Below are positions 4,059 to 27,654 of a stretch of 64,000 nt of DNA, piece after piece. A program made the position numbers and the translations under genes. Position 1 is the first letter of the stretch. Every line of letters begins with the position of its first letter. This DNA is from Candidatus Spongiisociaceae bacterium (GTDB lineage Bacteria > Actinomycetota > Acidimicrobiia > Spongiisociales > Spongiisociaceae), in the NCBI GenBank assembly GCA_965262915.1, contig OZ253564.1, forward strand, positions 2,912,001 through 2,976,000. The letters are read 5' to 3'. The notes under the pieces were generated by a model. It ran no database searches. It had not been told where the DNA came from and saw only the letters and a program-made list of their open reading frames with translations.

Positions 4059-4081
4059 GGCCTTGTCCAACCCTACTCTAT

Positions 4082-4244
4082 GTGGTCTGTCTGTAAAATG
4101 ATTCGGCGTGCCTTGGCAGCCATCGACGCTCCTCGCTGCGTTCCGCCTCCTCGATGTACCGCTGCGGGTACGCCTTCGTCGGCGGGCCTTGCGAGCAACG
4201 CCGCTGCCGGCGCATACCACACCACCATCTCACAGACAGACCAC
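4082..4244 (+). repeat. Family A palindromic MITE-like repeat, copy 1 (163 bp)
   Basis: Terminal inverted repeats GTGGTCTGTCTG...CAGACAGACCAC; near-identical copies at 10498, 26739, 35886 and 36051. Confidence 0.9.
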
Positions 4245-4270
4245 TGGATCCCGGTCGCGGTCGGCGGGGA

Positions 4271-7896: not shown

Positions 7897-7959
7897 CAGC
7901 GAACCAGACCCGTGATGTAGGACAACAAGGAGATCGTAAAGAGTACCATGCGAATGGTT

Positions 7960-8065
7960 CTAGGAGGGTGGTGTGACACCCCCCGTTGGCCCGACAGCGG
8001 AGGACAGACTGCCACGTCAGCAATGACGGGCCCACCGTTCAACCCGTTTCTCACCACCCTCCTAC
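7960..8065. repeat. Family B MITE-like repeat (diverged copy)
   Basis: Ends CTAGGAGGGTGGTG...CACCACCCTCCTAC match those of the copies at 11015, 45813 and 62506. Confidence 0.75.
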
Positions 8066-12153: not shown

Positions 12154-12861
12154 TCAGAGGTTCCAGCCTCCGCCGACCTGTATGAACGAGCCGCTTATGT
12201 AGTCGGTGTCGTCACGCAGGAGGAATCTCACCGCCGTGCACACATCCTCGAACTTTCCGTGACGGCGGGCCGGGATCCGGGCCAGGGCAGGCAGTGGCTC
12301 GGAGTTCTCCAGAACGCCCGGGAGGATGGCGTTCACCGTGATACCGTAGGGCGCTTCCGTCACCGCCATCGTCTTGGTGATGATCAGGATACCGGTCTTA
12401 CCGATGTAATAGGGAAGGCTACGGGGGCGGGCGGAGAGGCGATCGGCGCCCGAATCCGATACGTTGATGATCCTCCCCCCACCGTTGCGCAGCATCGGAA
12501 GCATCGCCCTGGAAACGTAGTAGGTGGCCGAAACGGTGGAGGCTATCTGGGAGTCCCATTCGTCGATGGTGAGGTCGTCGAGGTTCTTGAGGATGAAGTC
12601 GCCGACGTTGTTGACCAGGGCATCGAGGCCGCCGACCCTCGACCGGATCATCTCCGCCATGTGCTCGACATCCGACGGAACGGTCACGTCCGCCTGGATC
12701 GGGTGGGCCTTGCCGCCCCTCTGCCGGATCACCTCGGCCGCCGACTCCGCCTCTGGCCGGCTCGACCGGTAGTTGACCACCACCTCGTGGCCTTCGAGTC
12801 CCAGGTATATTGCGATCGCCCTTCCCAGACCCCTCGCGGACCCTGTTACCAGTACCTTCAT
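12154..12861 (-). CDS. SDR family oxidoreductase
   Basis: TGSARGLG, LVNNVG, YYIGK (YxxxK), ITVNAILPG. Confidence 0.92.
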   Translation of the reverse strand: MKVLVTGSARGLGRAIAIYLGLEGHEVVVNYRSSRPEAESAAEVIRQRGGKAHPIQADVTVPSDVEHMAEMIRSRVGGLDALVNNVGDFILKNLDDLTIDEWDSQIASTVSATYYVSRAMLPMLRNGGGRIINVSDSGADRLSARPRSLPYYIGKTGILIITKTMAVTEAPYGITVNAILPGVLENSEPLPALARIPARRHGKFEDVCTAVRFLLRDDTDYISGSFIQVGGGWNL

Positions 12862-12929
12862 AGACGCGCCATCTCCGCGGTCGTGCCCTACCGAGGTGAT
12901 GGTAACGCCGCCGGGCATTTCGGAGAGCG

Positions 12930-13465
12930 TCACGGCGGGAGATGTATCACTACGTCGCCTTCCAGATCCGTGCGGCGGATTTCCATTCCGGCTTGCTCGA
13001 GTTCGGCCAACAGCTCAGGAGAGGGGTGACCGTAGCGGTTGGGGCCCACGCTCACGACCGCCACCGAGGCGCCCGAATCGATCAGCCATCGGGAGTCGGA
13101 GGTGGCCGCACCCTGATGCGGGACCTTCAGCACCGCGACCGGGGGAGGTGGCAGTTCCCGCTGGGCGATCCGTTCGACGTCCCCCGACAGCAGTATCCGG
13201 GTCCGGCCCAGGGTGGCCACCATGACGATGGATTGGTCGTTGAGGGATGCGTACCTGCGCAGGGGCCCCAGCACCTCGAGCCCGATGGAGCCGATGAGGT
13301 AGCGGCCCGGCCGGGGCGTGGAGATGTCGGTGTGGGCGGAGGCGGTGCGGATGAAGGCGGCGAACTCGTCGCCCTGTCCGGGGAAGGGTACGTACCACAT
13401 CGCCCGGACCGGGATGGATCCCACCACGTCGGAGAGGCCGCCGTAGTGATCGTGGTGAGGGTGGG
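12930..13465 (-). pseudogene. comEC: comEC 3' fragment (metallo-beta-lactamase-like domain), separated by the integrated element
   Basis: Reads HPHHDHYGGL...NDQSIV...LLSGDVE...LKVPHQG...SVGPNRYGHPS...RRTD, the ComEC C-terminal domain. Confidence 0.93.
13452..13465. other. att core, left junction
   Basis: GTGGTGAGGGTGGG, identical to 25247-25260. Confidence 0.92.
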
Positions 13466-13638
13466 CACACCACTACTCATGTTTTTATCTATACTTATCA
13501 GACCTCAATAAACACCATTGACCTGGTGTTATAGACGTATAACAGGAGGGACCGGGGATCCAGGCATTATCATTAGATATCACCGAATTGCACTACTATA
13601 GTAGTAACTGAAGTAGTATCTACCGTTAGTGGTGTGCA

Positions 13639-14805
13639 ATGAAACGGAAAGGGCAACCCCTCACAGCAGCCTTCGTACGGTCAGTGAAACGGCCAGGCCG
13701 GTACGGCGACGGTCGGGGTGGTCACGGTCTGAGCCTGTTGGTGAAGCCGATGACCAACGGCCGCGTCTCCCGCTCATGGTCGCAAAGGGTCCTCGACCCG
13801 CGAACAGGGCGACCGACCGGCATCGGGCTCGGTGCGTACCCGGTCGTAACTCTGGCGCAAGCCCGCAAGATGGCGCTTCACAACCGTCGGGAACTCGACG
13901 CCGGACGCGACCCAAGAGGCGGCGGACTCCCCACTCTCGAAGCAGCCACCGAGAAGGTGATCGCCTTACACCGGCCGGACTGGAAACCCGGCTCTCGCAC
14001 CGAACACCAATGGAGACAATGGCACCGCGACTACATCGCGCCGGCCATCGGCGACCGGCTGGTGTCGGAAGTCACCACCGCCGACGTGCTCCGAGCGTTG
14101 ACACCGATATGGTCTTCCCGGCCGGTGGTCGCCCGACGGGTCCGCGAGCGGCTCTCGCTGGTGTTCCGATGGGCCATGAGTCAGGGCTACCGGCCAGACG
14201 ACCCGGCCGGACCGGACCTGCTCTCGGTACTCCCCAAGCAGAACGGCAAGCAGCACCACCAAGCGCTCCCCCATGGCGCCGTACCGGCAGCCATCCGCAA
14301 GGTGCGGGCGTCCACGTCCACTCTCCCGGTCCGGCTCTGCATCGAGTTCGTAGCGTTGACAGCGGCCCGTCACGGCGAAGCCCGACTCGCGCAGTGGCCC
14401 GAAATCGACTTCGACACGGCCATCTGGACCGTTCCACCTTCCCGTATGAAAGCAGGCCGTGAGCACCGGGTACCCCTCTCCGGCCGGGCGCTGGAAGTGC
14501 TCGCAGAGGCCCAAGCCGTAGACGACGGGTCCGGGCTGATCTTCGCGATGAACGGGAAGGCCATCAACGCGTCCACCATCGGCGCTACCTTCCGCAGACT
14601 GGAGATAGCCACCGCCCACGGTCTCCGGTCGGCTTTCAGGTCATGGTGCGCCGATGAGGGGATCAAGAGGGAGACAGCTGAAGAGTGCCTCGCCCACCAG
14701 GTCGGCAGCGCCGTCGAGTTGGCCTACCAACGGTCCGACGTGATCGAACTGCGCCGGCCAGTCATGCAAGCCTGGGCCGAATACATCACCCACAAACTGT
14801 TATAA
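13639..14805 (+). CDS. Tyrosine integrase (P4-like, N-terminal arm-binding domain)
   Basis: PGRYGDG..GL.L.V, IGLGAYPVVTLAQAR, LTAARHGEA, RMKAGREHRVPLS, HGLRSAF, LAH, AYQRS; adjacent to att. Confidence 0.96.
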   Translation: MKRKGQPLTAAFVRSVKRPGRYGDGRGGHGLSLLVKPMTNGRVSRSWSQRVLDPRTGRPTGIGLGAYPVVTLAQARKMALHNRRELDAGRDPRGGGLPTLEAATEKVIALHRPDWKPGSRTEHQWRQWHRDYIAPAIGDRLVSEVTTADVLRALTPIWSSRPVVARRVRERLSLVFRWAMSQGYRPDDPAGPDLLSVLPKQNGKQHHQALPHGAVPAAIRKVRASTSTLPVRLCIEFVALTAARHGEARLAQWPEIDFDTAIWTVPPSRMKAGREHRVPLSGRALEVLAEAQAVDDGSGLIFAMNGKAINASTIGATFRRLEIATAHGLRSAFRSWCADEGIKRETAEECLAHQVGSAVELAYQRSDVIELRRPVMQAWAEYITHKLL

Positions 14806-14894
14806 GCCTATAACATAGACACCCGCCTAATCCAACTGTTATAAGCCTATTATCCTTAGTGTTAGTTGACATTCATAACCAATAAGCCTAACGT
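14795..14894 (+). promoter_or_regulatory. Sigma70-type promoter for alpA with direct-repeat operators
   Basis: TTGACA (14866-14871)-N17-TAACGT (14889-14894); 17-bp repeat AACTGTTATAAGCCTAT at 14795 and 14834; partial copy ATAAGCCTA overlaps the -10. Confidence 0.7.
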
Positions 14895-14932
14895 GATATC
14901 ACCAATCGAAGTAGCGGACGAGAAGGGCAAAC

Positions 14933-15127
14933 ATGGCATCGGAACGGCTCATATTCCGAGTTGATGAGCTCGCGCAACGGCTCGGAGTCTCGACACAGAC
15001 CATCCGACGGTGGGAAAAAGCCGGAGACTTCCCCCGGGCAATCCGACTGGGCCAATCCGCCAGAAGTTCCATAGGCTGGAAAGCCGCAGACGTAACCGAC
15101 TGGATTGACAGCCGACCGGCCGCGTAG
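14933..15127 (+). CDS. AlpA-family regulator / excisionase
   Basis: 64 aa; ELAQRLGVSTQTIRRW...GDFPRAIRLG...GW...DVTDWI. Confidence 0.9.
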   Translation: MASERLIFRVDELAQRLGVSTQTIRRWEKAGDFPRAIRLGQSARSSIGWKAADVTDWIDSRPAA

Positions 15128-15146
15128 CGCGTAGACTCAGAACGAA

Positions 15147-15177
15147 GAACCCCACCGGTGGGCGACCGGTGGGGTTC
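15147..15177. terminator. Perfect 13-bp hairpin between alpA and the helicase gene
   Basis: GAACCCCACCGGT-GGGCG-ACCGGTGGGGTTC; no U-tract on the + strand. Confidence 0.5.
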
Positions 15178-15216
15178 AAATCTCCAAGAAAGAAGGTGAC
15201 AGTCAAGGAGGACAGA

Positions 15217-16683
15217 ATGCACTCTACCACCACCCGGCAGTATCCGCCACCGGTCACCCGTATACACGAAACCGCCGACAGATATCTGGTGTATCGGGAA
15301 GGCATCGACCGGCCCGTCTCGATCTCCGCCGCCGACTGGGAACACGACAACAACACCAACCCCTGGGACAAGACCAAACAGGACGCCAACCTAGCCGCGC
15401 TCCACAACGACGAACCCCACCCGTATCCATCCCCCAAAATGCTCTGGTCCGACTACTCAGCCATCGCCGACTTCCAGGCCGAACAGGCAGCCGCACGGTG
15501 GCACAAGCTCGCGTGGGACCGGATCGAGGCCGAACAGCTGCCAGCGTCCAACCGATCAACCGCCGAACTGTTCGACGAACTCGCCGAAGCTCAACAACTC
15601 GGTGCCGTCGAAGTCGCCGAGGTGCTCCGGGGGTTCTTGCGGCTGCGCGGTGTACACGAAGAGGACCTCGGCGGGCCGTACTGGTGGACCGACATACCCG
15701 ACCTCGACCGGCTGCCACCACCACCCGCCCCGTTGCTGACCCGAGACGACGGGCAGACTGTTGTGCCCGCCGACAGGTCAATCAGCATCTACGCACCACC
15801 AGAACGGGGCAAGACGTGGATCGGGTTCATGGTGGCACTGGCAGCTATCAAAACGGGTGGGCGGGCCGTAGTCGTCGACCATGAGATGAACGTCCGGGAC
15901 TGCGCTAACCGGTTCCGGCTGCTCGGCGGCTACCGCTACGTTCGCAACCCCGACCAGTTTCGTTATTTGTACGGACCGGAGACCCAACCCGCCGATGTCG
16001 AAGCATCCGCCCGGTGGCTCGCAGCCCGCCCCGGATCGGTGGTTGTCATCGACTCGGTGAACCGTGCCGGCGGCTACTCCACCCACCCCACCGAGTATCT
16101 CGAATGGGCCGACAGCAACGTCAAGCCCTACCGCACCAAACAGGTCGGCGTTGTGCTACTCGACCACGAAACCAAGACCCGCCCCGCGCAAGGCTCCAAC
16201 TATCAGGGACCGATGGGCACCGGCCAGAAAGTCGCCGACGTGGACATCGTGCTCCGGGTAGACGGCACACCGTGGACCACCACCGAACCGGGCACGATCA
16301 CCCTTCACCGGATCAAGGACAGACACGGCGACCTGCCAGGCCCGCCCGCCGTCGCGTCCATCACCGGCGACTATCAAGACGGCGGATTCGCATGGCGGAT
16401 ACACCGTCCGGCCACCGCCACCATCGAACAAGCACCCGGCGACTCGTCCCGCGCCCGGCGACTCAAGCGGCTAGAGAAGGCCATCGTGTGGGTACGCAAG
16501 CAGCCCGAACCCGTGACCGCCTTCGACTTGGCGAAGGGTATCGGAGTAGGGAAGGTGACCGCACTCGACTACCTGAAAGAACTCGCCGCCGGCGGCGAAC
16601 TCACCCAACACACCAAGGGGCGAACGTTCGTGTTCTCAGCACCCGACGACCAGGGCATCTTGACCCTTCCCGAGCCCACATGA
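15217..16683 (+). CDS. Replication protein: RepA/AAA_25-type helicase with C-terminal winged HTH
   Basis: AAGGAGG SD before ATG 15217; Walker A APPERGKT, Walker B VVVIDS, LLDH; C-terminal TAFDLAKGIGVGKVTALDYLKEL. Confidence 0.8.
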   Translation: MHSTTTRQYPPPVTRIHETADRYLVYREGIDRPVSISAADWEHDNNTNPWDKTKQDANLAALHNDEPHPYPSPKMLWSDYSAIADFQAEQAAARWHKLAWDRIEAEQLPASNRSTAELFDELAEAQQLGAVEVAEVLRGFLRLRGVHEEDLGGPYWWTDIPDLDRLPPPPAPLLTRDDGQTVVPADRSISIYAPPERGKTWIGFMVALAAIKTGGRAVVVDHEMNVRDCANRFRLLGGYRYVRNPDQFRYLYGPETQPADVEASARWLAARPGSVVVIDSVNRAGGYSTHPTEYLEWADSNVKPYRTKQVGVVLLDHETKTRPAQGSNYQGPMGTGQKVADVDIVLRVDGTPWTTTEPGTITLHRIKDRHGDLPGPPAVASITGDYQDGGFAWRIHRPATATIEQAPGDSSRARRLKRLEKAIVWVRKQPEPVTAFDLAKGIGVGKVTALDYLKELAAGGELTQHTKGRTFVFSAPDDQGILTLPEPT

Positions 16684-16686
16684 CCT

Positions 16687-16811
16687 ATCGTTCAAGTGTT
16701 CATTTGAACGTTCAAACGCCACCTGAACGATGGCTTACGTTCAATCGTTCAAGTGTTCAACCCACCCCGTAGGGGTTGAACATGCACGTTGAACACCCAT
16801 CTGACGTTCAA
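16687..16811. repeat. Iteron cluster, putative replication origin of the element
   Basis: 11 GTTCA/TGAAC motifs; 16-bp repeat ATCGTTCAAGTGTTCA twice; palindrome TTTGAACGTTCAAA; immediately after the helicase stop. Confidence 0.75.
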
Positions 16812-16831
16812 GTCAACGAGAAAGGACCACC

Positions 16832-17068
16832 ATGACCACGCAAGACGAACGAACCGCAGCACTCCTGAAACTCGGTGCTGCCATCTTCGGACGCAACAAC
16901 CTCATCGGCAGCGACTTCGACCACATCCACCTCGAAGAGACAGAAGCCGACTACGAACAAGACCGCGCCGGCGTCCTCATCCAGTTCTCCATCAGCTGGC
17001 ACGCACTCGGAAAGATCGCCACCGAACAGACCTGCGAAGCGATCACGGTCCTCCTACCAGATCACTAG
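16832..17068 (+). CDS. Hypothetical protein (78 aa, acidic)
   Basis: GAAAGGA SD before ATG; codon style like neighbouring element genes. Confidence 0.7.
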   Translation: MTTQDERTAALLKLGAAIFGRNNLIGSDFDHIHLEETEADYEQDRAGVLIQFSISWHALGKIATEQTCEAITVLLPDH

Positions 17069-17168
17069 CCACCCGCCCCACCCCCGGTAGGGCACCGCCC
17101 GGCCCGGCCGCCCGTGCCAGCGCCGACCGGTGTAGCCTCGGAGACACACACACCTTCCCGGCGTCTGG

Positions 17169-17459
17169 TCAGCGGTCGAGGAGCTCGCGGACCAGGGTGT
17201 GCCACGCCTCAACTGCCGGCGACACCGGACGCCGAGCCCGATTCTCCGCCACCGTCTTCGAGATATGGCATGACCGGCATAGCACCTGAAGGTTGCCAAG
17301 GTCATAGGATGCGCCGCCATCTGCTAGCGCGATCACATGATCCACTTCGAGCTTGCCCGCACACCCACAGGATCGGCACCTATGCTGGTCACGTTCCAGC
17401 ACTGCCCGGCGGACGACCCGCCATCGGTTCCGGTTGATAGCCGAGCTCGGGTGTGCCAC
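17169..17459 (-). CDS. HNH endonuclease (terminase-associated type)
   Basis: RWRVVRRAVLERDQHRCRSCG...LEVDHVIALADGG...NLQVLCRSCHISKT; start uncertain (17459 or 17513). Confidence 0.92.
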   Translation of the reverse strand: MAHPSSAINRNRWRVVRRAVLERDQHRCRSCGCAGKLEVDHVIALADGGASYDLGNLQVLCRSCHISKTVAENRARRPVSPAVEAWHTLVRELLDR

Positions 17460-17699
17460 CCCGACTTCATCCCATCCGACGGACACATTGCTCAGGCGCG
17501 GGCGTATGTTCACACCAAGAGTCCTGGGCAGTCACAACTATCACTCCGACTAAAGACAGCGTCGCAGTTGTTACAAAAGAAATCATCCATCTGCCTATGT
17601 GGTATATATGCGAACTGATCCCACTGGCAATTGGCACACTTCTTGTATGGAATACCTACCCCGCCTGTAGGAGGCGGCTAAGGGATCCGGTCCTTTATG

Positions 17700-19132
17700 G
17701 GCTCATCGGATTTCAGTGGGGAGTGACCGATGGGAGTAGGTCCCAGTTGGGTTTCCCCGCGTAGAGAAGGGCGCGGATTCGGTAGTTCGCGAAGTTGCGG
17801 AACCCGAACGCTGCTCGTTTGATCCGTTTGATGAGGTTGTTGAGGGCTTCGGTGGGTCCGTTGGTTACCTTCGAGATGTGCCAGTTGGTGATCTGGGGGG
17901 TCCAGCGGGCGATGGTACGACCCAGCTTGTTGATCTCGGGTGGGCAGGATTCGTGTTGGAGGTCGTCTGCGAGCTGGAGGGTGTATCGGAGAGCAAGGAC
18001 CGGACTCTCGATCCCGTAGATGCCTCGTACCGTCTCTTTCGCGTGCCAGGCTGTGCGCACTTCCCCGTAGGGGTCACCAGCATCGAGGAGACCACGCAGC
18101 CGTATTTGACCCCGGTCGCTGATCCTCTCATGCGCAGCGGTTAGGAGCCGCCGTATCCGATACAGCGGGTCATCCTTGCGGCCTCGATGCCCGAGGGTTT
18201 CGTTTTGGACTCTTCGTCGTACCTCGTCGAGACGCTGGTTGGCGAGGCGGATGACGTGGAACGGGTCCGCTACCTGCAGCGCGTGCGGCAGCACCCTGTC
18301 ATACGCCTTCCGATACGAACCGGACATGTCCAACACCGCCCAGCGGATAGCCTCACACCATTCGGTGGGTTGTGACCGGAACCAGGCTGCGGCGCTTTCT
18401 GCTGTTCTACCAGGGACTATGTCGATCAGCTGGTGGCCGCCAACGTCGACGACAGAGGTGCACCAGACTTTGGTACGCCAACGGCCCCGACGCCAGAACA
18501 ACGTCTCGTCCACTCCCACAGCTTCGACGGTCCCGACCCGATCGGTGTCTGCTTCCAGCAGCGCTTCGCCCCAGCGGCCAACCTCTTTGTTCACCGTATG
18601 CCAATCACAACCAAGTTCTGCGGCGACCTCGTCGACCGAACGGCCCCGCCCACCCACCTGGATGGTCACCCACCGGGCCGCTCGGGATGTCAACAACGCC
18701 CGTTGGGGACCAATCTTGGGGTCTTGTTCGATGAACGATCTGAGCGCACAGTCGGGGTTCGGACATGTCCAGCGCCGTTTCCGCCACCGCAGCCGCACAG
18801 GCCGGCCGAACGCCGGTAAATCCACCAACACAACCGTCCGATAGCCCTTCGACCACACCGACCCGCCACAGGACTCACACAACGGCCGGGGCTTGCGGGA
18901 CCGGATCACCACCTCCAACGGTGCCTCCTCGCCCGGGTCGTTGATCCCTACCAGATCAACCTCACCTAGGCCTACCAACTTCTCGCACATGCGCGTAGGA
19001 TCAGCTTCCACAGGGGTCCTCCTGCCTCGGATGTCATTACCAACACCCGATTATGGAGGACCCCTCCTCACTTCTGGTGGATTCCAACTCCCCCTGGCAG
19101 ATCCCCTACTCCCCACTCATTTCCGAAGAGCC
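17700..19132 (-). mobile_element. ISL3-family insertion sequence (1433 bp)
   Basis: 25-bp imperfect TIRs GGCTCATCGGATTTCAGTGGGGAGT / GGCTCTTCGGAAATGAGTGGGGAGT; 8-bp TSD CCTTTATG (17692-17699, 19133-19140). Confidence 0.95.
17713..19011 (-). CDS. ISL3 transposase
   Basis: Zn finger CESCG...C, GVDET, LDMS, DPFHV, TNGPTEALNNLIKRIKRAAFGFRNFANYRIR. Confidence 0.96.
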   Translation of the reverse strand: MEADPTRMCEKLVGLGEVDLVGINDPGEEAPLEVVIRSRKPRPLCESCGGSVWSKGYRTVVLVDLPAFGRPVRLRWRKRRWTCPNPDCALRSFIEQDPKIGPQRALLTSRAARWVTIQVGGRGRSVDEVAAELGCDWHTVNKEVGRWGEALLEADTDRVGTVEAVGVDETLFWRRGRWRTKVWCTSVVDVGGHQLIDIVPGRTAESAAAWFRSQPTEWCEAIRWAVLDMSGSYRKAYDRVLPHALQVADPFHVIRLANQRLDEVRRRVQNETLGHRGRKDDPLYRIRRLLTAAHERISDRGQIRLRGLLDAGDPYGEVRTAWHAKETVRGIYGIESPVLALRYTLQLADDLQHESCPPEINKLGRTIARWTPQITNWHISKVTNGPTEALNNLIKRIKRAAFGFRNFANYRIRALLYAGKPNWDLLPSVTPH

Positions 19133-19667
19133 CCTTTATGTTCCCTACTTCGGTGACAAGGGTATTCATAGTTTGGGCAAGGTCGTTTGTATTTTTGGCG
19201 ATCTTCCCAATTGGTGTGTTGTTGCCTTCAGCAGAGTTTGATCCAGAAATACCCGGTCCAGCGAGATGCAGATGTGTAGAGCTCTTCACGCGCCAGAATA
19301 GAATTCGCCGATCGTAACTGACTGAGATCTTAGTCTCCCGTAGTCGACTGAGGAACTCTTTACTAGAAGCCCAGCCCATGTCAAACTCATAACGCTGGCC
19401 ATTGTCCATATCGCCGAGGTTCTTAGTTCCATATACATGGTCTCTATCGTCATAGGGTTCATACTCGGGAGAAAAGCACAGTTCGACATTCCGTGCAACT
19501 CTCTTGCCTATATTCTCGATTTCGAGAACCAAGATGTCCAAAGAAAGCAAACGTACCCGCGGTCGTGGACGACGCGTATATCTCCAAACTAGGAGGGTCC
19601 CAGTCAATCCGAGAAGGGTCGCCACGGCTTCGCTGTGTACGCTGAGCCATTCACCGATACCTGTCAT
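19068..19667 (-). CDS. AT-rich cargo gene, membrane-anchored hypothetical protein (C-terminus altered by ISL3)
   Basis: GAGGAAGG SD; N-terminal hydrophobic helix followed by RRPRPR; visibly more AT-rich than its flanks. Confidence 0.75.
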   Translation of the reverse strand: MTGIGEWLSVHSEAVATLLGLTGTLLVWRYTRRPRPRVRLLSLDILVLEIENIGKRVARNVELCFSPEYEPYDDRDHVYGTKNLGDMDNGQRYEFDMGWASSKEFLSRLRETKISVSYDRRILFWRVKSSTHLHLAGPGISGSNSAEGNNTPIGKIAKNTNDLAQTMNTLVTEVGNIKGLFGNEWGVGDLPGGVGIHQK

Positions 19668-19697
19668 CTGTAACCTTCCTCATAGTTTGTAATCGGT

Positions 19698-21251
19698 CTA
19701 GACAATCGCCGACCGAAGCCGCCAGTTCCGGCTCCGCCCGGCGTGCCAATGACGGTAACCGGTCGCGACAGCCAGTATCGCCGCCGCTGCCGCGTCGTCA
19801 CGCGCCCGAACACGTCGGCCACCCTCCGACCCCTTCGCCAGCTTCGCGTTACCCGCCGGGTCAACCATCACTCGCGCTTCGGACATGGCCGCCGTGAGTA
19901 GCAGAGAATCCGCGGGCCGGACATGGCCACCCAACACGGCCGCCCGGAACTGGCGCACGTCCTCGCCGCCGTCCTTGTACCCCTGACCCCTCACTACCAG
20001 TTGAGCGGTCGGGAAGCGTAACGCGTCGAGATGCTGCCGCAGCTCCGCCGCCCGCCACCGGTCACACACCACCGCCGCCGGTTTGCCCCAGCGGATCAGA
20101 GCTTCCGACAACAGCCGCCGAACGTCGGAAACATGACCACCGGCGATCACCAACTCGCCCCGCTCCGCCATCTTCGAGTAGAGCGAACCCACACCGTCGG
20201 CCAACCCACGGCGGCGAAGGTCGGGCTGTGCGGGGAACACCGCCACCGCGTCCAGCCACCCGGACCGGTGATACGCCGCTGCCGCTGACATAGCCGCCGA
20301 CGTACCAAGATCGACGCCCAGCACGTAGCTGCCCCGGACCGGTTCGGGTTCCGGCAACCCGGCTGCCCGCTTCCACGCGGCGGCGTCCAGTAGCACGGCC
20401 CGGTCAATGTCCGCCACGCCGAGATTCAGCCGGAGCGCCTTGAACGAGGCGAGCGCGTCCGGGTCGTTGCGGGCGTCCACAATCTCCGCCTGAATCCGGG
20501 CCTTCAAGCTCGGCAGGTGATCCACCGACGGGTTCGCCCGCCGAATGGTTCGCATCCAAAACGGCGGATCATCCGGACGGGCTGCGTGAACCTGGGCGTA
20601 GGCAGCCGACTTGAGCAGACGGGCGAACCAGTGCGTCTGGTCCGCCGGTCGGGTACCCAACGCGATCAAGCGGGAACCCGGCACCTTCCCTAGGCCGGTG
20701 CGAATCGCTTGGAGCATCCGATCCGCCCGCCCCGGTTCCCACTGGCTGGGTTCGTCGAGAAGCGCCAACGCGGGCCGTAGCCCGTGAGCCCGCCCCGGAT
20801 CGGAACCAATACACCGAATCCGGCAACCCGACGCCCGGAACTCAAGCGTCGCTCGATTCGCGCTGTCTTGCTTCCGCCACGCCGACCGGTCGCCCAAGTC
20901 GTAGCGGTTACCCAAGAACGCGAGCACATCCTCGAAGATGATCCGTGACTGGTCGAAGCTCGCCGCCACACACACAACCTCACGCCGCCGACCATGCAAC
21001 GGCCCCGACGAGTCCACCATCGCCGCCGCTATCCCCGCCACAAGCGCCGACTTGCCATTACCCCGGCCAACCGTCAGAGCCGAATCGCCCGGCCCCCGGA
21101 ACGCCCCTCGAATGAACCGCCGCTCCCACGGCAACACCACGAACGGCTGCCCGTCGTGGTCGCCGCCCGCCAACGTCAGTCCGGCGAGGTAGGCGATGAT
21201 GTCAGTTGCAACAGCCACGACTTGGACCCTACCCACTCTGTTAACCAACAT
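19698..21251 (-). CDS. Terminase large subunit
   Basis: LPWE, Walker A GRGNGKS, A..FDQSRIIF, Walker B ALLDE, nuclease VLGVDLG, DRWR, DDAAAA; start may lie about 10 codons downstream. Confidence 0.92.
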   Translation of the reverse strand: MLVNRVGRVQVVAVATDIIAYLAGLTLAGGDHDGQPFVVLPWERRFIRGAFRGPGDSALTVGRGNGKSALVAGIAAAMVDSSGPLHGRRREVVCVAASFDQSRIIFEDVLAFLGNRYDLGDRSAWRKQDSANRATLEFRASGCRIRCIGSDPGRAHGLRPALALLDEPSQWEPGRADRMLQAIRTGLGKVPGSRLIALGTRPADQTHWFARLLKSAAYAQVHAARPDDPPFWMRTIRRANPSVDHLPSLKARIQAEIVDARNDPDALASFKALRLNLGVADIDRAVLLDAAAWKRAAGLPEPEPVRGSYVLGVDLGTSAAMSAAAAYHRSGWLDAVAVFPAQPDLRRRGLADGVGSLYSKMAERGELVIAGGHVSDVRRLLSEALIRWGKPAAVVCDRWRAAELRQHLDALRFPTAQLVVRGQGYKDGGEDVRQFRAAVLGGHVRPADSLLLTAAMSEARVMVDPAGNAKLAKGSEGGRRVRARDDAAAAAILAVATGYRHWHAGRSRNWRLRSAIV

Positions 21252-21290
21252 TCAACATCTTTCACATATGTAAGGCGTTAGACTGTTGCT

Positions 21291-22577
21291 ATGACTACCA
21301 GACAGAAGATCGAACTGAGGCTCTCAAAGGTCCGCTCCCGGTTGAACGAACTTGCCGGAGTCGAGGAACTCACCGACGAACACCGGGCCGAACTCGACAA
21401 CCTCGAAGGTGAGTTCGGAGACCTCGAACGCCGGCATCGGGCGGCGATCCTGTCCGAAGCCCACGAGGAACGCGCCGCGGTGGGGATGTTCCCCGACGGT
21501 GACGACCAGGACGGCGCCGAGGTCCGGCAGTTGCTGGGCCGGGTCACCCTCTCCGACTATCTCGGTCCGGCGGCTGCCGGTGCCGGCAGCCGGGGCGCGG
21601 CGGCCGAACTCAACGCTGCCTTGGAAGTACCCGAGGCGGGTCCGTCCGGCGGGGTGGCGGTTCCGTGGCGGGTGCTGCTTCCCGATGGTGGGATCGAGGC
21701 CCGTGCGTTCACGACCACCGCCAACAACGACGGTACGGAGATGCAACGCCCGATCCTGCAGCGGCTGTTCGGGCCGGGGATCATGAACACGCTCGGGGTT
21801 CGGATGGACTCGGTTCCGGTCGGTCGGGCGGAGTGGCCGCTCATCACGTCCGGCGTGGCACCCGCCCAGGCGAAGGAACCCGACGCTGCCGCGGCTGCGG
21901 TGGTTGCCGGATTCAGCTTCGCCAATCTCAAGCCGAAGCGGTTGACCGGCGTGTACGAGTACACCCATGAGATGGCCGCCAGCGTCGCGGACCTAGAGGC
22001 GGCGCTGCGGCGTGACCTCGCCGATGCTGTGAGGTCGAACATGGAACAGCAGATCGTCAACGGGACCGCTCCGACTAACCAGAACCCGCAGAACGTGGAG
22101 GGGTTCATAACCAAGCTCACCGGCTCGGACCTGTCCGCATCGCAGGCAACCGCGGCCGATTACGGCAAGCTGCACGCTCTTGCGGTTGACGGTGTCCATG
22201 CCAGCACCGAGACGGAAGTTATGTCGGTGATCGGTGACGAAACGTATCAGCACGCCGCCGGCGTGTACATCACCGGTTCCGGCGAGTCCGGTTCGGAACT
22301 GTTAAAGCGCCGGTCCGGTGGTTGTAGGGCTTCGACGTACATTCCCGCTATCGCGTCCAAGAAACAGTCGGCGATTCTGCACGCGGCCGGGTCGAACGGT
22401 GGGGGGATCATGCGGGGCGACTCGGTGGCGGCTGTATGGCCGACGCTCGAAGTGATCCGGGATATCTACACGAAGGCGTCCCAGGGTGTCGTGCTGACGT
22501 GGCTGACGTTGTGGGACGCGGTGGTTGCGTTCCGTTCGTCGGCTTACAAGCAGATCGACATACAGATACGGGCATAG
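21291..22577 (+). CDS. HK97-type major capsid protein with N-terminal delta (scaffold) domain
   Basis: Coiled-coil N-terminus, SGGVAVP, LKPKRLTG..EYTHE, LRRDLADAV...IVNG; adjacent to protease and portal. Confidence 0.87.
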   Translation: MTTRQKIELRLSKVRSRLNELAGVEELTDEHRAELDNLEGEFGDLERRHRAAILSEAHEERAAVGMFPDGDDQDGAEVRQLLGRVTLSDYLGPAAAGAGSRGAAAELNAALEVPEAGPSGGVAVPWRVLLPDGGIEARAFTTTANNDGTEMQRPILQRLFGPGIMNTLGVRMDSVPVGRAEWPLITSGVAPAQAKEPDAAAAAVVAGFSFANLKPKRLTGVYEYTHEMAASVADLEAALRRDLADAVRSNMEQQIVNGTAPTNQNPQNVEGFITKLTGSDLSASQATAADYGKLHALAVDGVHASTETEVMSVIGDETYQHAAGVYITGSGESGSELLKRRSGGCRASTYIPAIASKKQSAILHAAGSNGGGIMRGDSVAAVWPTLEVIRDIYTKASQGVVLTWLTLWDAVVAFRSSAYKQIDIQIRA

Positions 22578-22581
22578 GCTC

Positions 22582-23481
22582 ATGGTCGAACGGACCCGAC
22601 CGTTAGAGGTCCGGCTCGCGGGCCGGACCCTTCGCGGCGTCGCGTTGCGATATGGGGAACAGGCACGAGACCGGGCCGAGATGTTCGAGCCGGGGGCGTT
22701 CCAACCCATAGGGTCGGTGTCTCTGAACCTGCAACATGACCGGTTCCGGGAAGTAGCAAGCACCGACGGGGGATCGCTGCGGATCACCGACACGCCCACC
22801 GAGCTACGGATCGAGGCCGACCTGCGGGAGGGTTCCGCCGAACTGTCGTTGGTGAGACGCCGCGCTCTGCGTGGTCTGTCCGTCGAGTTTCGGGCACTGG
22901 CAGATAGGCGGAACCCCGCCGGTCTCCGGGTGGTACAGCGGGCGGAGCTTCCCGCTATCGGCTTGGTCGATTCCGGTTCCTACCGGACCGAGGTTGAGCT
23001 ACGCGCCGCGTTCGGGCAAGCGTGGCTAACCGCCGATATCCGGTTCGGGAAGCGGATGCAATGCCAATGCCAAGGCCCGACTTGTACCGATGTTGAGTTC
23101 GAGCCTGGCGCGTTCGAGGACCTGATCGAACGCCGCGACGTGCTCGCCGTTGGTGGCGGCGGTTTCGCCAACGTCCTGGGGAGCACGCGGCGGGGAACGC
23201 TGCTTGTCGACCAGACCGACAAGGGTCTGCGGGTCGGTCTCACCAACGCGGGAACGGACACGGCCCGCCGCATCGTCGAAGCCGCCGCCGTGGCCGATAT
23301 CTTTGTGAGGCCGCTGATCGACCTCGAAGCGTCCGAGTACGAAGACGACGGCACCACCAGACGTTTCACACGGGCGGTCACACGGGCGCTGTTGGTGAAA
23401 CCCACCCCGAACGCCAAGGGTCACCGTCCGGCCCGCATACGGGGCGTCCAGACCCGCAGGAGGCGACGCCCGTGGCTGTAA
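22582..23481 (+). CDS. HK97-family prohead protease with a duplicated domain
   Basis: LRGVALRYG, EMFEPGAF, LQHD, GLSVEF; second FEPGAF...VLGSTRRGTL...DKGLRV unit. Confidence 0.85.
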   Translation: MVERTRPLEVRLAGRTLRGVALRYGEQARDRAEMFEPGAFQPIGSVSLNLQHDRFREVASTDGGSLRITDTPTELRIEADLREGSAELSLVRRRALRGLSVEFRALADRRNPAGLRVVQRAELPAIGLVDSGSYRTEVELRAAFGQAWLTADIRFGKRMQCQCQGPTCTDVEFEPGAFEDLIERRDVLAVGGGGFANVLGSTRRGTLLVDQTDKGLRVGLTNAGTDTARRIVEAAAVADIFVRPLIDLEASEYEDDGTTRRFTRAVTRALLVKPTPNAKGHRPARIRGVQTRRRRRPWL

Positions 23482-23789
23482 CCATCGACGCGGACGCCCT
23501 CGCCGAAGCCATCGGCGGTGAGAACTCACCTACCGTCGTTGCCCGCGTACTGGAAACCGCCACAACCATCGTCGAGGACTACGCACCCCACGCGCCCGAC
23601 GCGATCCACAACGAAGCCTCCGTCAGATTCGCCGGGTACCTGTACGGGTCTGACTTCGGCGGAATCCGCGACGAAACAATCGGGCCGGTGACCGTCACGT
23701 ATCCGCTCAACCATGCGGCCATGTTCCGCAACTCGGGGGCCGCCGCGTTGCTCACCCGGTACAAGCGACGGCGGGCAGGGGCGGTCTGA
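23472..23789 (+). CDS. Putative head-tail connector (gp6-like)
   Basis: 105 aa, helical, ending ALLTRYKRRRA; overlaps the protease and portal genes. Confidence 0.6.
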   Translation: MAVTIDADALAEAIGGENSPTVVARVLETATTIVEDYAPHAPDAIHNEASVRFAGYLYGSDFGGIRDETIGPVTVTYPLNHAAMFRNSGAAALLTRYKRRRAGAV

Positions 23790-24850
23790 TGCGCTGGCCT
23801 TGGGGGCGTGAGAAACGGGAAAGCCAGCCGTTCACCGACGCCGTAGTCGGCACGATCTACGCGCAGGCCGCCGGAACCGTCGCGGCTGACCCGTCCGGGC
23901 TCGCCGCGCTCGAAGTAGCGGCCGGACTGTACGCCCGCAGCTTCGCCGCCGCCACGGTCGAACCAGCCGAACTCCAGCCGGTCATAGGCCCATCCGTGCG
24001 GGCTCTGATCGCCCGGAACCTGATACGCCGCGGCGAAAGCGTTCACCTGATCGAAGTCAGCGGCGGCCAGGTCGAACTCATCCCCGTCGGGTCGTGGGAC
24101 GTGCGCGGACCCTGGACCGAGAGGGACTGGTGGTACCGGGTTGACACCTTCGGACCGTCGGGCAACGCAACCCACTACACACCCGCCGGCGCCGTCGTGC
24201 ACGCCCGCTACGCCGTGGAGCCGGCCCGCCCCTGGTTCGGAGTCGCCCCCCTCGATTGGGCCCGCTCAACGGGCACCCTCGCCGCCTACCTTGAGACACG
24301 GTTGGGCCAAGAAGCCGGCGGAACCGTCGCCCACGTCCTGCCCATCCCCCAAGACGGCGGCGACGGCAGCACCGACGACCCGCTCGCCGACCTCAAGGCT
24401 GACATCCGCAACGCGAAGGGTGGGACGGTGCTCACCGAAACCACCGCGGGCGGATGGGGAGAAGGGAAGATGTCCGCCCCTCAAGCCGACTGGCAGCCAC
24501 GGCGGATCGGTGCGAACCCGCCCGCAGTGTTGCCGACGTTGCGGGCTGACGTGTTCGGCGCGGTACTCAACGCGTGCGGAGTGCCCGTGTCCTTGGCGAC
24601 TGACGCCGATGGAACTTCGCAGCGGGAAAGTTTCCGCCGGTTCCTGACCACAGGCTTGGAACCGCTCGGGGAACTGGTAGCCGCCGAACTCGCCGCCAAG
24701 TTGGACACCCCCGGCGTCCGGTTCGACTTCACCGGAACCTACGCCCACGATCTCGCCGGACGTGCTCAAGCGTTCGGGAAGCTCGTCGCCGGCGGCATGG
24801 GCACCGACCGGGCGCTACAGATATCCGGGCTGCTGGTGGCCGATGGGTAA
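23789..24850 (+). CDS. Phage portal protein
   Basis: MRWPWG.EKR start, LIRRGE, VVHARY...PWFGVAPL, CGVP.SL, LEPLGELVAAELAAKL. Confidence 0.85.
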   Translation: MRWPWGREKRESQPFTDAVVGTIYAQAAGTVAADPSGLAALEVAAGLYARSFAAATVEPAELQPVIGPSVRALIARNLIRRGESVHLIEVSGGQVELIPVGSWDVRGPWTERDWWYRVDTFGPSGNATHYTPAGAVVHARYAVEPARPWFGVAPLDWARSTGTLAAYLETRLGQEAGGTVAHVLPIPQDGGDGSTDDPLADLKADIRNAKGGTVLTETTAGGWGEGKMSAPQADWQPRRIGANPPAVLPTLRADVFGAVLNACGVPVSLATDADGTSQRESFRRFLTTGLEPLGELVAAELAAKLDTPGVRFDFTGTYAHDLAGRAQAFGKLVAGGMGTDRALQISGLLVADG

Positions 24851-25214
24851 GCCGGTCTGTTCGCTCGACGGCTGTACCGAACCGTCGAAGGCTCGCGGCT
24901 TCTGTAAGAGCCACTGGGCGCGGGTCCGGTTCCGGGAGCGTCGGCTGGCCGAAGGGCGGAAACCGCTCAAAGAGAACCCAAGACCCGAAGAGTTGCTGGT
25001 CCGCTACTGGACACCCGCCGAAGACGCCCTCATCCTCGCTGAGATAGCCAAGGGCTTGGGGAAGGCCGACTGGCTGCCCGTGGCCCTTCAACTTGGACGC
25101 ACCAGGCAGGCGTGTAGGACCCGTGCGACCTTCTTGCGGAAACGGGATCGTCTCGCGGACGGATCTCCAGCCGAACACGTTGGCATAGCGGAAGTGGTAA
25201 CCGAAACTTCCTAA
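24843..25214 (+). CDS. Zn-finger plus Myb/SANT-like DNA-binding protein (123 aa)
   Basis: CSLDGC...ARGFCKSHW, then WTPAEDALIL...W..VALQLGRTRQACRTR; ATG overlaps the portal end. Confidence 0.7.
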   Translation: MGKPVCSLDGCTEPSKARGFCKSHWARVRFRERRLAEGRKPLKENPRPEELLVRYWTPAEDALILAEIAKGLGKADWLPVALQLGRTRQACRTRATFLRKRDRLADGSPAEHVGIAEVVTETS

Positions 25215-25246
25215 AACACTCTGACCTGGGGATATAGGCGGTATCG

Positions 25247-25260
25247 GTGGTGAGGGTGGG
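25247..25260. other. att core, right junction
   Basis: GTGGTGAGGGTGGG, identical to 13452-13465. Confidence 0.92.
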
Positions 25261-26738
25261 ACACCACCAGCAGGTCTATGGCCCGTATGCCGAATCGGGA
25301 CAGCCCGTCGCGAACCTTCAACCCGCTGCTCCCTCCGTCGATCAGTACCGTTTCGCCGCCTTCGCCGAGCAGCAGCAGAGCGTCTCCCTGCCCGACATCC
25401 AGCGCCACGAAGGCGGGTCGGACCGAGGTGAGAGCGAACGTGTGAGGGGCGGCGGAGACCGTGAGCACGCTCACCACCAGCACGCACGCCACGACCGCTG
25501 CCGGACGGATCCGACCCCACATCGCCCCCGACCCGAGCACCAACAGGACCACGAAGCCCCGCCAGTCGATCTGGGGTAGGTCGGCGGTGATCGTTGCGAT
25601 GCTGAGCACCACCTCTGCCGCCATGGCTGCCGCGGCTACGACCACGTCGATCCCGGCCAGGGCGCCCGCCCCGGCCAATCCGGTGGAGGCGACCACGAAC
25701 GGAGCCGCGGCCACGTTGGCGACGGGCGACCACAACGGGATGGTCCCCACGGCAACCAGCAAGATGGGCGCCACCCCCAGTTGCGCCCCACACGACGCGC
25801 CCAGCGCGGTTCCCACCCATCTCGGCCGCAGCGCTGCGAACCAACCGGCGCCGATCACCACACCGGCGGTGGCGGCCACCGAGAGCTGGAATCCCAGGCT
25901 GAAGGCAAGCTCGGGAGAGGCGAGGAGCAGGAGGCCTACCCCGCCGGCGATGACCACCCAGATGTCGGGGCGTAGCCCGAAAGGCCGGGCCACCAGAACC
26001 AGTCCGGCCATCGTCGCGGCCCGAACCACCGAGGGATCGGGTCCGATCAGCAACACGAAGAAGGCCAGTCCGCCCAGGCCGATCACCGCCCGGCGCCGGG
26101 AACTCCATCCGAGGGGACCGGCCACCAGGAACAGGGCGCTCAGGAAGAGAGCCACGTTGCTTCCCGACACCGCCACGAAGTGGGACAACCCGGCGCGACG
26201 CATCCGCTCGACGTCCACCTCCTCCAGATGGGAGGTGTCGCCCAGCAGGAAACCGGCGAGGAGGGCCCGGCCGCGACCTGCGTCCGGCCCCAACCGTTCG
26301 ATGATCCCCGCACGGATAGCGACGATCGTCTGACCCAGCCATCCACCGGATGCTCCGGCGGTGCGGGACTGCACCACCTCTCCCCGCCAGGTCACCCTAC
26401 GACCGGGACCGCCCCCCTGGGCTGCATCCGGGATCGGCTCCATCTCGGTCCTGATCCACCAACGGCTGGTCCTGGGCCAATGGGCAACATCGCCGCGGAG
26501 CCAACCGACCGGACCGTCCCAGGGTCGGCGCCGACCCTCCTCCCCCACGGCAACGACCCGGGCACGCACCAGTCCGTCGTCCCGCATCCGGATGCCGTCC
26601 GACAGCGCCTCCACCACCAACATCACCTCGCCGACGGGGAGTTCGAGCCCGAGCGTGCGCTGGTCGCGGGCGGCGAGCATCAGACCGGCCACCATCCCTA
26701 CGGCAGCCAGCCCCATCACCAGGCCCGCCGTCCACTGA

Positions 26739-26901
26739 GTGGTCTGCCTGTCGGACGATTCGGCGTGTCCCGCTTGCCATCGACGCCCCTCGCTGCGTTC
26801 CGCCTCCTCGACGTACCGCTGCTGGTACGCCTTCGTCGGCGGGCCGTGCGAGGAACGCCGCTGCCGGCGCATGACACACCGCCACTTCGCAGACAGACCA
26901 C
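26739..26901 (+). repeat. Family A repeat, copy 3, in-frame inside comEC
   Basis: GTGGTCTGCCTG...CAGACAGACCAC; no stop in the comEC frame across it. Confidence 0.9.
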
Positions 26902-27036
26902 TGGCGAGGACCGCCGGCCCGAGCGCCGCGATCAGCGCGACCGGGGACCACGAGATCCATACCCCGCAAGCGATCCCGATCCATATGGCGGCGGCGCCCG
27001 CCAGGTAGAGGACGGCGCGCCGATCCGGGAGACGGC

Positions 27037-27654
27037 TTATCGACTCACCACCGCGTAATCACGGAGACCGGCCAGCTTTCCTTCGCCGATGCCCGGTACA
27101 TCGAGCAGGTCCTCCAACGTCTCGAACGGGCCGTGGGTCTCGCGATAGGTCATGATGCGGGTGGCCAGGACCTCCCCCACTCCGGGCAACCCGGTCAGCT
27201 CGTCGACCCCGGCGCGGTTCAAATCGACCGGGAACTTCCTGGCTTCGGGTCCCGGCGCGGCTACCGGGGTCGGAGTAGCCCCGTCCGCCCACGGTACGAC
27301 GAGCCGCATCCCGTCCGCCACCGGGGCGGCCAGGTTGATGTTTCCCAGCCTCCCGCCCAGGCGGGCCCCTCCGGCCGCAACTATCGCGTCGGCCACGCGG
27401 CTCCCGTCCGGAACCGATACCAGCCCCGGCGCCGTGACCGCCCCGGACACATGGACGGTCAGCATGGCCGGAAGGGACGCCACCGGCGACGAGGTCGGGG
27501 GCGTGGTGGCGGCGGGCGGTACGGAAGGAGGGGGCGCCTGGGGCCGGTGCCAGAAGGCGAAGGCGATGGCGAGAGCCAGACCGGCTCCCACGATCGGTAC
27601 GACCACGCGCCGCTGGGAGATGTTCGCAGGTGGCCGGCTATCGGTATCGGGCAT
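27037..27654 (-). CDS. comEA: Competence protein ComEA
   Basis: TM helix, SLBB VHVSGAV..PG...RVADAI.AAGG, HhH LPGVG...VPGIG. Confidence 0.95.
   Translation of the reverse strand: MPDTDSRPPANISQRRVVVPIVGAGLALAIAFAFWHRPQAPPPSVPPAATTPPTSSPVASLPAMLTVHVSGAVTAPGLVSVPDGSRVADAIVAAGGARLGGRLGNINLAAPVADGMRLVVPWADGATPTPVAAPGPEARKFPVDLNRAGVDELTGLPGVGEVLATRIMTYRETHGPFETLEDLLDVPGIGEGKLAGLRDYAVVSR

Follow-up and report, generated by a model that had tools for sequence, protein, structure and literature searches.

Insertion of the element in comEC

The window analyzed here is the whole 64,000-nucleotide stretch of contig OZ253564.1 (assembly GCA_965262915.1, positions 2,912,001 to 2,976,000) from Candidatus Spongiisociaceae bacterium, a member of the Acidimicrobiia (Actinomycetota). 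In this window, the gene comEC, which encodes the competence channel, is split into two parts by a mobile element of about 10.35 kb (10,354 bp from core to core when an insertion sequence (IS) is left out). In this assembly the element measures 11.8 kb, owing to an IS of the ISL3 family. Its gene content identifies it as a putative phage satellite that encodes a head of its own, similar to the phage-inducible chromosomal islands that form capsids (cfPICIs). The insertion point lies in motif II of the metallo-beta-lactamase domain of comEC (HPHH|DH). The features of the locus are collected in Table 1.

A 14-nt att core, CCCACCCTCACCAC, is present at both ends of the element. Within the window it occurs in exact form at 13452-13465 and 25247-25260 only, both on the minus strand. 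With one mismatch at most, the number of matches expected by chance is 0.09, and one of 100 shuffles of the window reached two. No further exact copy is found across the 5.06-Mb genome. The two copies are 11,795 bp apart, with 11,781 bp of element between them.

The open frame of the 5' part runs from 26872 to 25211. It ends in ..LLVVSHPHH followed by 11 element codons, RYRLYPQVRVF*, and contains the Pfam Competence domain together with the first 52 positions of Lactamase_B. The frame of the 3' part, from 13472 to 12930, begins as stop-WCAHPHHDHYGGLSDVVG.. and covers Lactamase_B positions 51-182; it is in frame across the core, reading ..AHPHHDHYGGLSDVVG.. there. Joining of the halves at the core in silico yields a single frame with the sequence SHPHHDH (motif II, HxHxDH) and no internal stop. 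Because the core forms part of the reading frame, precise excision would restore comEC. An earlier reading of this DNA from its sequence alone (hereafter the sequence-only reading) had given the same core positions, strand and spacing, which the repeat search confirmed. It had also claimed that the halves are in frame and rejoin to SHPHHDH without a stop, in agreement with both the in silico joining and natural intact alleles. Its estimate of about 771 aa for the rejoined protein needs correction: the length is 715 aa when the first ATG in the open frame is taken as the start, and intact alleles of close strains, which start with MGLAAVGM or MQAG.., have called lengths of 656-745 aa.

The first ~46 codons of the open frame derive from a dispersed repeat of about 175 bp, with 95 blastn matches in the genome (up to 88 over one position) and a depth of 4000-8000 in four public sequencing runs. 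The true start of comEC is likely the methionine of MGLAAVGM at 26716-26718 (Met-53 of the open reading frame (ORF)), where the intact alleles P0188 and P0191 start. The identity of the gene is supported by motif II (HxHxDH) following the channel domain and by the NCBIfam ComEC_N-term model, which scores above its cut-off on P0188. On the same allele, ComEC_Rec2 (NCBIfam) gives 130.5 bits, under the equivalog cut-off of 190.

comEC as an attachment site in close strains and relatives

The ComEC cluster at 90% identity in a public protein collection has 18 members, and our statements cover the 15 listed. At least nine unsplit sequences on 11 contigs all read LLVVSHPHHDHYGG (SHPHHDH), although P0197, which is among these, is frameshifted at its C-terminus. 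The best intact allele, P0188, is identical to the rejoined halves at 658 of 663 residues (99.25%), and the 3' part has the same or almost the same sequence as the C-termini of the intact P0186 and P0188. Between 3 and 43 residues separate the intact collection alleles from this strain, which assigns them to other strains.

Split alleles of the type found in the window are represented by N and C parts on four contigs each. P0192 ends in ..SHPHHRYRLYPQVRAF, a variant of the same element tail. Other arms are found as well: P0189 ends in ..SHPHRALVV, a different element arm at the comEC junction, and P0193 starts with MQPYDTEVVVSHPHHDH.. (..EVVVSHPHHDH..), a different arm at the opposite junction. 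Judging from these alleles, comEC is a recurrent attachment site within the species cluster. Most strains have it empty, and no fewer than two lineages of elements use it, as indicated by at least two further junction types (P0189 and P0193). Intact and split alleles coexist in the cluster, which answers the comparison of empty and occupied sites proposed in the sequence-only reading. Six short ComEC sequences (P0147, P0159, P0175, P0179, P0181 and P0184) were considered as splits and rejected, as they are truncated elsewhere and not at motif II.

Our claims on the splitting of comEC apply to the species cluster. More broadly, the gene was found in 39 of the 41 relatives examined and in 370 of an order-wide sample of 401 genomes; these tallies include unpublished genomes (G039 and G028 in the former, G196, G279 and G249 in the latter). 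In the order-wide scan, at least nine genomes among the matches listed have a comEC open frame shorter than 665 aa (G307, G135, G156, G056, G283, G291, G368, G226 and G079).

Motif II is uninterrupted in the family, where 10 relatives were aligned and the codons of 11 were read. It reads H-P-H-H-D-H in this species versus H-A-H-x-D-H in the 11 genus and family relatives and in the next-nearest proteins (74-80% identity). The species-specific proline codon, CCT (25250-25252 / 13455-13457), lies within the att core; CCT accounts for 9 of 96 proline codons in neighboring host genes. The alignments indicate that the motif II proline is native to this species. In genus and family relatives, 2-5 of the 14 core positions are mismatched. 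Since these relatives read H-A-H and differ at 2-5 of 14 core positions, the comEC site is species-specific at the DNA level. A search for the exact core in 28 family genomes gave 8 matches, equal to the 8 obtained with the reversed control and thus at chance level.

A sister satellite in comM

A second capsid-forming satellite of about 10.5 kb is located ~52 kb away, outside the window, with the same gene set in the canonical order. It is bounded by an 11-nt repeat and splits comM (yifB) after codon 21, the N part reading MFASTNSVALVGVKARAVSVE. The remainder of the gene has the Pfam domains ChlI, Mg_chelatase and Mg_chelatase_C, on the basis of which we assign it to ComM/YifB; DprA is encoded by the next gene. 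The only Phage_capsid matches in the genome are those of these two satellites. Their integrases are 52% identical, and they have in common a 27-nt arm motif, located in both cases in the arm that adjoins the upstream part of the split gene. The nearest named ComM homologues, at 60-65% identity, are labelled Acidimicrobiia. Four WhiB genes are present in the genome, a type of gene that Corynebacterium alone possesses among 14 control genomes.

Of the 16 members of the ComM cluster, the 15 listed are covered here. Eight sequences on 15 contigs have the native N-terminus. Four gene calls, on 10 contigs including this genome, start just past the junction, and two have foreign N-termini fused at SVEAHV. 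The comM part of this genome is 100% identical to an intact allele. These records point to the coexistence of occupied and intact comM alleles in the species cluster. Equal contig sizes were used to infer which ComEC and ComM records belong to one contig. On four paired contigs both genes are intact, and a fifth has an intact comM together with an unsplit, C-terminally frameshifted comEC. comM alone is occupied on three, and both genes are occupied in this genome and on a contig of 50,266 bp.

Gene content of the satellite

Every ORF between the cores is annotated, and the gaps between annotated genes are all below 200 bp. No tail or lysis genes are found among these ORFs with Pfam, PHROGs and NCBIfam, and gaps of this size leave no room for them. 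The claim of a capsid-encoding satellite made in the sequence-only reading therefore holds, with an integrase and head genes and no tail.

Table 1. Features of the comEC locus and of the sister satellite (window coordinates unless another source is named).
Feature	Position	Strand	Evidence and remarks
comEC 3' part	12930..13451	-	173 codons DHYGG..HLPP + stop; rest of metallo-beta-lactamase nuclease domain; Pfam Lactamase_B positions 51-182
att core copy, integrase side	13452..13465	-	CCCACCCTCACCAC; element side continues as imperfect mimic of host codons (GTGGTGT+G)
P4-type tyrosine integrase, 388 aa	13639..14805	+	Pfam Arm-DNA-bind_3, Phage_int_M, Phage_integrase; PHROG 1 E 6e-42; NCBIfam PRK09692 domain
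AlpA/MerR-type helix-turn-helix protein, 64 aa, candidate excisionase/regulator	14933..15127	+	Pfam Phage_AlpA E 9e-9, 35.5 bits vs cut-off 21
Replication-type P-loop protein, 504 aa (AAA_25, RecA/DnaB-like)	15169..16683	+	Pfam AAA_25 30.7 bits vs cut-off 27; weak NCBIfam DNA helicase match
78-aa ORF	16832..17068	+	Coding-type GC content at third codon positions; no family
HNH endonuclease, 114 aa, packaging-associated type	17169..17513	-	Pfam HNH E 3e-10; PHROG 589 E 2e-22
ISL3-family insertion sequence	17700..19132	-	Transposase 17713-19011; 25-nt terminal inverted repeats; 8-bp duplication CCTTTATG
Low-GC (about 50%) cargo ORF	19068..19667	-	No known family; between TerL and HNH
Large terminase (TerL), 517 aa	19698..21251	-	Pfam TerL_nuclease, TerL_ATPase; PHROG 9 E 8e-57
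HK97-type major capsid protein, 428 aa	21291..22577	+	Pfam Phage_capsid 25.2 bits vs 24.2; NCBIfam major_cap_HK97 28.2 vs 27.5; PHROG 10
Prohead serine protease S78, 318-aa open frame	22525..23481	+	Pfam Peptidase_S78 E 9e-12; PHROG 80
105-aa protein, probable gp6-like head-tail connector	23472..23789	+	Position between protease and portal kept in all relatives; Atlas score 0.96 to PF05135 clusters
Portal, 353 aa	23789..24850	+	Pfam Phage_portal 44.1 bits vs cut-off 39.1; PHROG 12
Zn-ribbon + Myb-like DNA-binding protein	24762..25214	+	Likely start ATG 24843; Pfam Myb_DNA-binding 25.8 bits vs 24.4; homologue after the portal of the sister (L071)
27-nt arm motif, candidate arm-type integrase site	25174..25200	-	Exact copy in sister satellite, nowhere else in genome
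att core copy, end of comEC 5' part	25247..25260	-	Exact repeat search
comEC 5' part	25261..26719	-	Competence channel domain + start of nuclease domain; Pfam Competence + Lactamase_B positions 2-53
Dispersed repeat copy between comEA and comEC	26736..26910		Source of spurious N-terminal extension of comEC frame
comEA, upstream gene of operon	27037..27654	-	SLBB + helix-hairpin-helix; Pfam HHH_3 and SLBB
Sister capsid-forming satellite, about 10.5 kb	G000:C1:2989678-3000212 (locus L071 4678-15212)		~52 kb away, outside window; canonical gene order, same gene set

The 105-aa protein is probably a gp6-like head-tail connector, given its conserved position and a protein-language-model similarity (Atlas) that we take as a lead only; it has no Pfam or PDB match. 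The 78-aa ORF and the Myb/Zn protein are candidates for a small terminase, the latter being alternatively a regulator. Pfam and NCBIfam matches to the 504-aa AAA_25 protein include no primase domain. A phmmer search of the PDB with the integrase gave a nuclear magnetic resonance structure of the central domain as the sole match, and the catalytic residues were accordingly judged by eye. The cargo ORF, the Myb/Zn protein and the 105-aa ORF have no match in PADLOC or NCBIfam, and neither does the 78-aa ORF in PADLOC. The 27-nt arm motif is absent from IMG/VR.

The ISL3 insertion (Pfam DDE_Tnp_ISL3, E 1e-57) occupies 1,433 bp inside the element and is flanked by its 8-bp target duplication at 17692-17699 and 19133-19140. 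Contigs of the four public runs described below (X1, X3, X6 and X7) contain the IS-free joint 17691->19133, with 8 shared letters, at element depth; the four include one marked as a potential source run. Near-full-length copies of this IS family number 37 in the genome, and 11 of these reach at least 99% identity. The ISL3 copy in the assembly is a recent insertion or a minority form. It replaces the last few codons of the cargo ORF, which without the IS is 182 aa long and ends at 17678. The ORF is absent from related loci and has no family in Pfam or PHROGs, and Atlas returns unnamed clusters only. It may be satellite cargo.

The block comprising TerL, the cargo ORF, the IS and HNH (17169-21251) is opposite in strand to the capsid operon, in contrast to the nine of nine related loci with terL and capsid, which keep one strand. 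The inverted arrangement is confirmed by colinear contigs from two independent runs, of 7,011 bp (X6) and 10,429 bp (X7). No inverted repeats longer than 7 nt are found at the borders of the block.

The P4-type integrase has about eleven paralogues of full or almost full length in the genome, at 48-56% identity (e.g., C1:238854, 347256, 504594, 1239150, 1411443, 2904078 and 4480405), one of which adjoins tRNA-Ser. This number of paralogues suggests many integrated islands in the genome.

The satellite family

A search at E<=1e-3 gives 850 homologues of the capsid protein, and over 120 of these share at least 63% identity with it. The family is largely metagenomic, and many members are found on contigs of 7-12 kb. 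Related loci were drawn from the same genome, from two family genomes, and from metagenome-assembled genomes (MAGs), IMG/VR and metagenome contigs. In the nine with both terL and capsid, the genes terL, HNH and capsid share a strand, and protease, connector and portal come next where they can be recognized. Wherever a locus extends far enough, int and alpA are located upstream. Sizes from repeat to repeat are similar in the element described here (10,354 bp without the IS), its sister (10,524 bp) and L056 (10,325 bp). The last of these is the only one of eight related loci in which att repeats of at least 12 nt were found.

Three capsid relatives at 44-56% identity, L052-L054 (OZ253442.1, OZ245327.1 and CAUVXA020000007.1), have the same gene order and come from MAGs that carry the label Longimicrobiales (Gemmatimonadota), so that the satellite family extends over more than one phylum. 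In a member of the host family, a related satellite (L072, G013:C32:80000-97500) is located between dop-like and pup-like genes, a proteasome locus recognized by reading the sequences by eye. Two members of the integrase cluster at 90% identity, P0333 and P0335, lie on public contigs of 10,860 and 9,793 bp, approximately the size of the element. These contigs could be separately assembled or excised copies.

Proposed effect on transformation

The anatomy of the element, its insertion in motif II, the in silico restorability of comEC, the recurrence of the site, the comM sister and the coexistence of occupied and unoccupied alleles are established by the data above. The reading that we prefer, with a probability of about 0.75 for the whole of it, is that the satellite inserts in motif II of comEC, disables transformation and escapes curing, and that re-arming of the host is a by-product of excision.

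On integration, the P4-type integrase would recombine the core in the attP of the element with the comEC codons for H-P-H-H|D-H. What remains of ComEC is the channel part with an incomplete nuclease domain and a foreign tail of 11 residues; an in-frame stop cuts off the other 173 codons. Mutation of motif II in B. subtilis lowers transformation 10-100 times, and knockout of comEC gives no detectable transformants (passages of PMC8579336). As the truncated ComEC would be without a working nuclease domain, carriers are predicted to be poor at DNA uptake or incapable of it, a prediction that draws on the identity of the gene and on the B. subtilis data. The integrase and AlpA would excise the element precisely, restoring comEC. 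The satellite would build its own heads and package its own DNA, whereas tails and lysis would come from an external helper phage; a resident helper was sought in the genome, which has no tape-measure (PF10145) match and no third capsid. The sister would act likewise on comM, upstream of dprA, and the two sites show presence/absence polymorphism within the species, with several variants of the element at each. With transformation disabled, the elements could avoid deletion by incoming homologous DNA (chromosomal curing).

Transformation silencing is the best-supported reading, and a regulated switch is not shown. The sequence-only reading had offered both, either silencing that protects the element from curing or a reversible switch controlled by excision. 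Its competence-targeting part is strengthened by the sister in comM; its excision-controlled switch is not shown.

Several observations weigh against the reading that we prefer. Natural transformation is not known to have been demonstrated in this organism or its class, a point on which no search was made. Competence targeting is seen in this species cluster only. The nearest integrases of the family, at no more than 57% identity, adjoin tRNA genes, and the flanks of eight related satellite loci contain no comEC, comM or dprA. This particular copy may be impaired, since its TerL-HNH block is inverted and, in the assembly, an IS lies between the two genes. The element has no recognized small terminase. 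Furthermore, the capsid scores barely exceed the curated cut-offs (25.2 versus 24.2 bits and 28.2 versus 27.5 bits), and profile searches of PDB sequences with the capsid alignment gave no match. The capsid assignment is also supported by the gene neighborhood and by the family of 850 homologues.

The contigs of public runs add to these points. Seven runs from four studies contain 96-98% of the sampled words of window 22500-27500. We placed contigs (not reads) of four of these runs, X1, X3, X6 and X7, on 12400-27600. In X1, X3 and X6, a host contig ends at 13465 and an element contig starts at 13436 at the left node; at the right node, an element contig ends at 25276 and a host contig starts at 25247. 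X7 has the left break only. The 30-nt overlaps are those expected at a branch of a k=31 graph, k being taken from the overlaps themselves. Because the bases at 13466/25261 and at 25246/13451 differ, the nodes are the points where the occupied allele diverges from an alternative one. The branches could equally well reflect an empty site or another element variant at comEC, carried by co-occurring strains. Taking depth as one mean per contig, which limits the comparison, the host flanks exceed the element in depth by a factor of 1.3-1.8 in the four runs (20.7 vs 11.7 in X1, 21.6 vs 16.7 in X3, 19.7 vs 11.3 in X6 and 9.5 vs 7.45 in X7).

The excision junctions that the sequence-only reading had looked to do not appear among the joints listed for these contigs. 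The attB joint, 13465->25261, is not among the joints listed; its unitig of ~46 nt is probably too short to appear, and we count it neither way. No attP joint is among those listed for the four runs, and no contig breaks at the nodes of a circular attP (25231-25260 / 13452-13481) in any of them.

These contigs bear directly on the alternative of a regulated switch of the active-lysogeny type, in which a signal would drive excision without loss of the element, ComEC would be made and the element would re-integrate. We consider this improbable. The branches at the att nodes and the excess depth of the host flanks in four runs are what it would lead one to expect; however, co-occurring strains or variant elements account for the branches equally well, and the circular attP nodes show no break and the listed joints no attP or attB. 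The integrase and AlpA are intact, the cores are perfect and the comEC halves show no decay: they match an intact allele at 658 of 663 residues and keep 258 of the 274 columns that do not vary in 10 relatives, with 10 of the 16 misses arising from the truncated start that we used. The comM part, at 100% identity to an intact allele, fits the same picture, and precedents exist in the Listeria comK prophage and SpyCIM1, as described in abstracts on these systems. Against this, the intact alleles differ by 3-43 residues and hence belong to other strains, and support for the switch does not go further than restorability.

The remaining alternative is an incidental target, with the integrase using a conserved, sequence-stable stretch and the insertion being neutral in a comEC that has no role in transformation. 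Homologues of the integrase were examined in this respect. In 29 family genomes the best non-self match has 57% identity, and the neighbors are tRNA-Val, tRNA-Ala and other sites. A single-sequence search of species-representative genomes gave no match. None of the homologues lies beside comEC, and tblastn of the two halves against 35 loci (33 integrase, 2 capsid) matched the window's own locus only. Thus, the survey of homologues proposed in the sequence-only reading found none at comEC. Homologues at no more than 57% identity are too distant to decide target specificity, and the chance secondary site that the sequence-only reading had allowed for is answered by the recurrent junction types P0189 and P0193. 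Although satellites of the family elsewhere adjoin tRNA-Met, tRNA-Ala, tRNA-Arg, tRNA-Lys or other sites, transformation of the host is unproven and genus relatives do not keep the 14-nt core (2-5 mismatches, with alanine in place of proline), we regard an incidental target as very unlikely, because both capsid-bearing satellites of the genome occupy transformation genes (comEC, and comM beside dprA), comEC is kept in 370 of 401 order genomes and intact in most strains of the species cluster, which argues for function, and several element variants are present at each site.

Relation to known systems

The comparisons in this section draw on passages or abstracts of the papers concerned. The cfPICIs were defined by de Sousa et al. 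2023 (PMC10085698). The element resembles them in having one end with integrase, AlpA and a putative replication gene, its own capsid, protease, portal, probable connector, HNH and TerL, a size of ~10-14 kb and no tail or holin. It differs in its host, which belongs to the Actinomycetota (with relatives in Gemmatimonadota MAGs), whereas cfPICIs are described mostly from Proteobacteria and Firmicutes. It also differs in the order terL-HNH-capsid-protease-connector-portal and in that no small terminase is recognized. The comparison is one of gene set and description; the matches here are to generic phage families, and dependence on a helper is presumed.

Site-specific integration inside the comEC coding sequence is known from streptococci, where a GA dinucleotide in comEC (celB) serves as the insertion point of Phi1207.3, Phi10394.4 and Tn1207.1 (PMC4260502; review PMC12378983). 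Those elements are 52-59-kb prophages or a 7-kb defective transposon of Firmicutes with macrolide resistance. The element described here is a 10-kb satellite whose tyrosine integrase uses a 14-nt core within motif II of the nuclease domain, and no resistance gene is seen in it. IS elements interrupt comEC in Piscirickettsia.

Mobile elements in comM, comFA, comK and comYC have been argued to follow an anti-curing tactic (Croucher et al. 2016, PMC4774983; review PMC12378983). The two satellites resemble them in their insertion in competence genes, in the use of divergent integrases on one pathway and in the targeting of comM. Those elements are prophages and islands of Firmicutes and Proteobacteria, whereas here two sister satellites are found in one genome of the Actinomycetota. 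In the Listeria comK prophage and in SpyCIM1, a small phage-related island in mutL, the element likewise interrupts a gene that precise excision restores. Condition-dependent excision and re-integration were measured in those systems; ours is known from sequence alone.

With comEC already known as a target of streptococcal prophages and transposons, the novelty considered in the sequence-only reading narrows to the satellite: a word search of open-access papers, supplements excluded, found no report of one in comEC. What is new is a head-forming satellite as the element, the host group, the position in a catalytic motif with a 14-nt core, and the pairing with a sister in comM.

Significance

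A wider scenario is possible, and we put it forward as tentative. Head-forming satellites of the Acidimicrobiia would have diversified their integrases against successive steps of transformation (comEC, and comM with a likely polar effect on dprA). Populations would be mosaics of cells in which neither, one or both genes are interrupted, with carriage and excision setting transformability; excision induced by a helper would re-arm survivors or neighbors, and satellites rather than prophages would act as the main brake on transformation in an abundant environmental group whose competence is not known to have been studied.

Elements that disable transformation are central to the chromosomal-curing view, and the cases known so far involve prophages, islands and plasmids in Firmicutes and Proteobacteria. 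The locus described here brings in capsid-forming satellites, a class described only in 2023, as likely actors in an environmental actinobacterial lineage, and reveals a large, mostly metagenomic family of them. It thus offers a natural and testable system for what a satellite may gain from blocking uptake, for re-arming by excision and for the transformability of the host.

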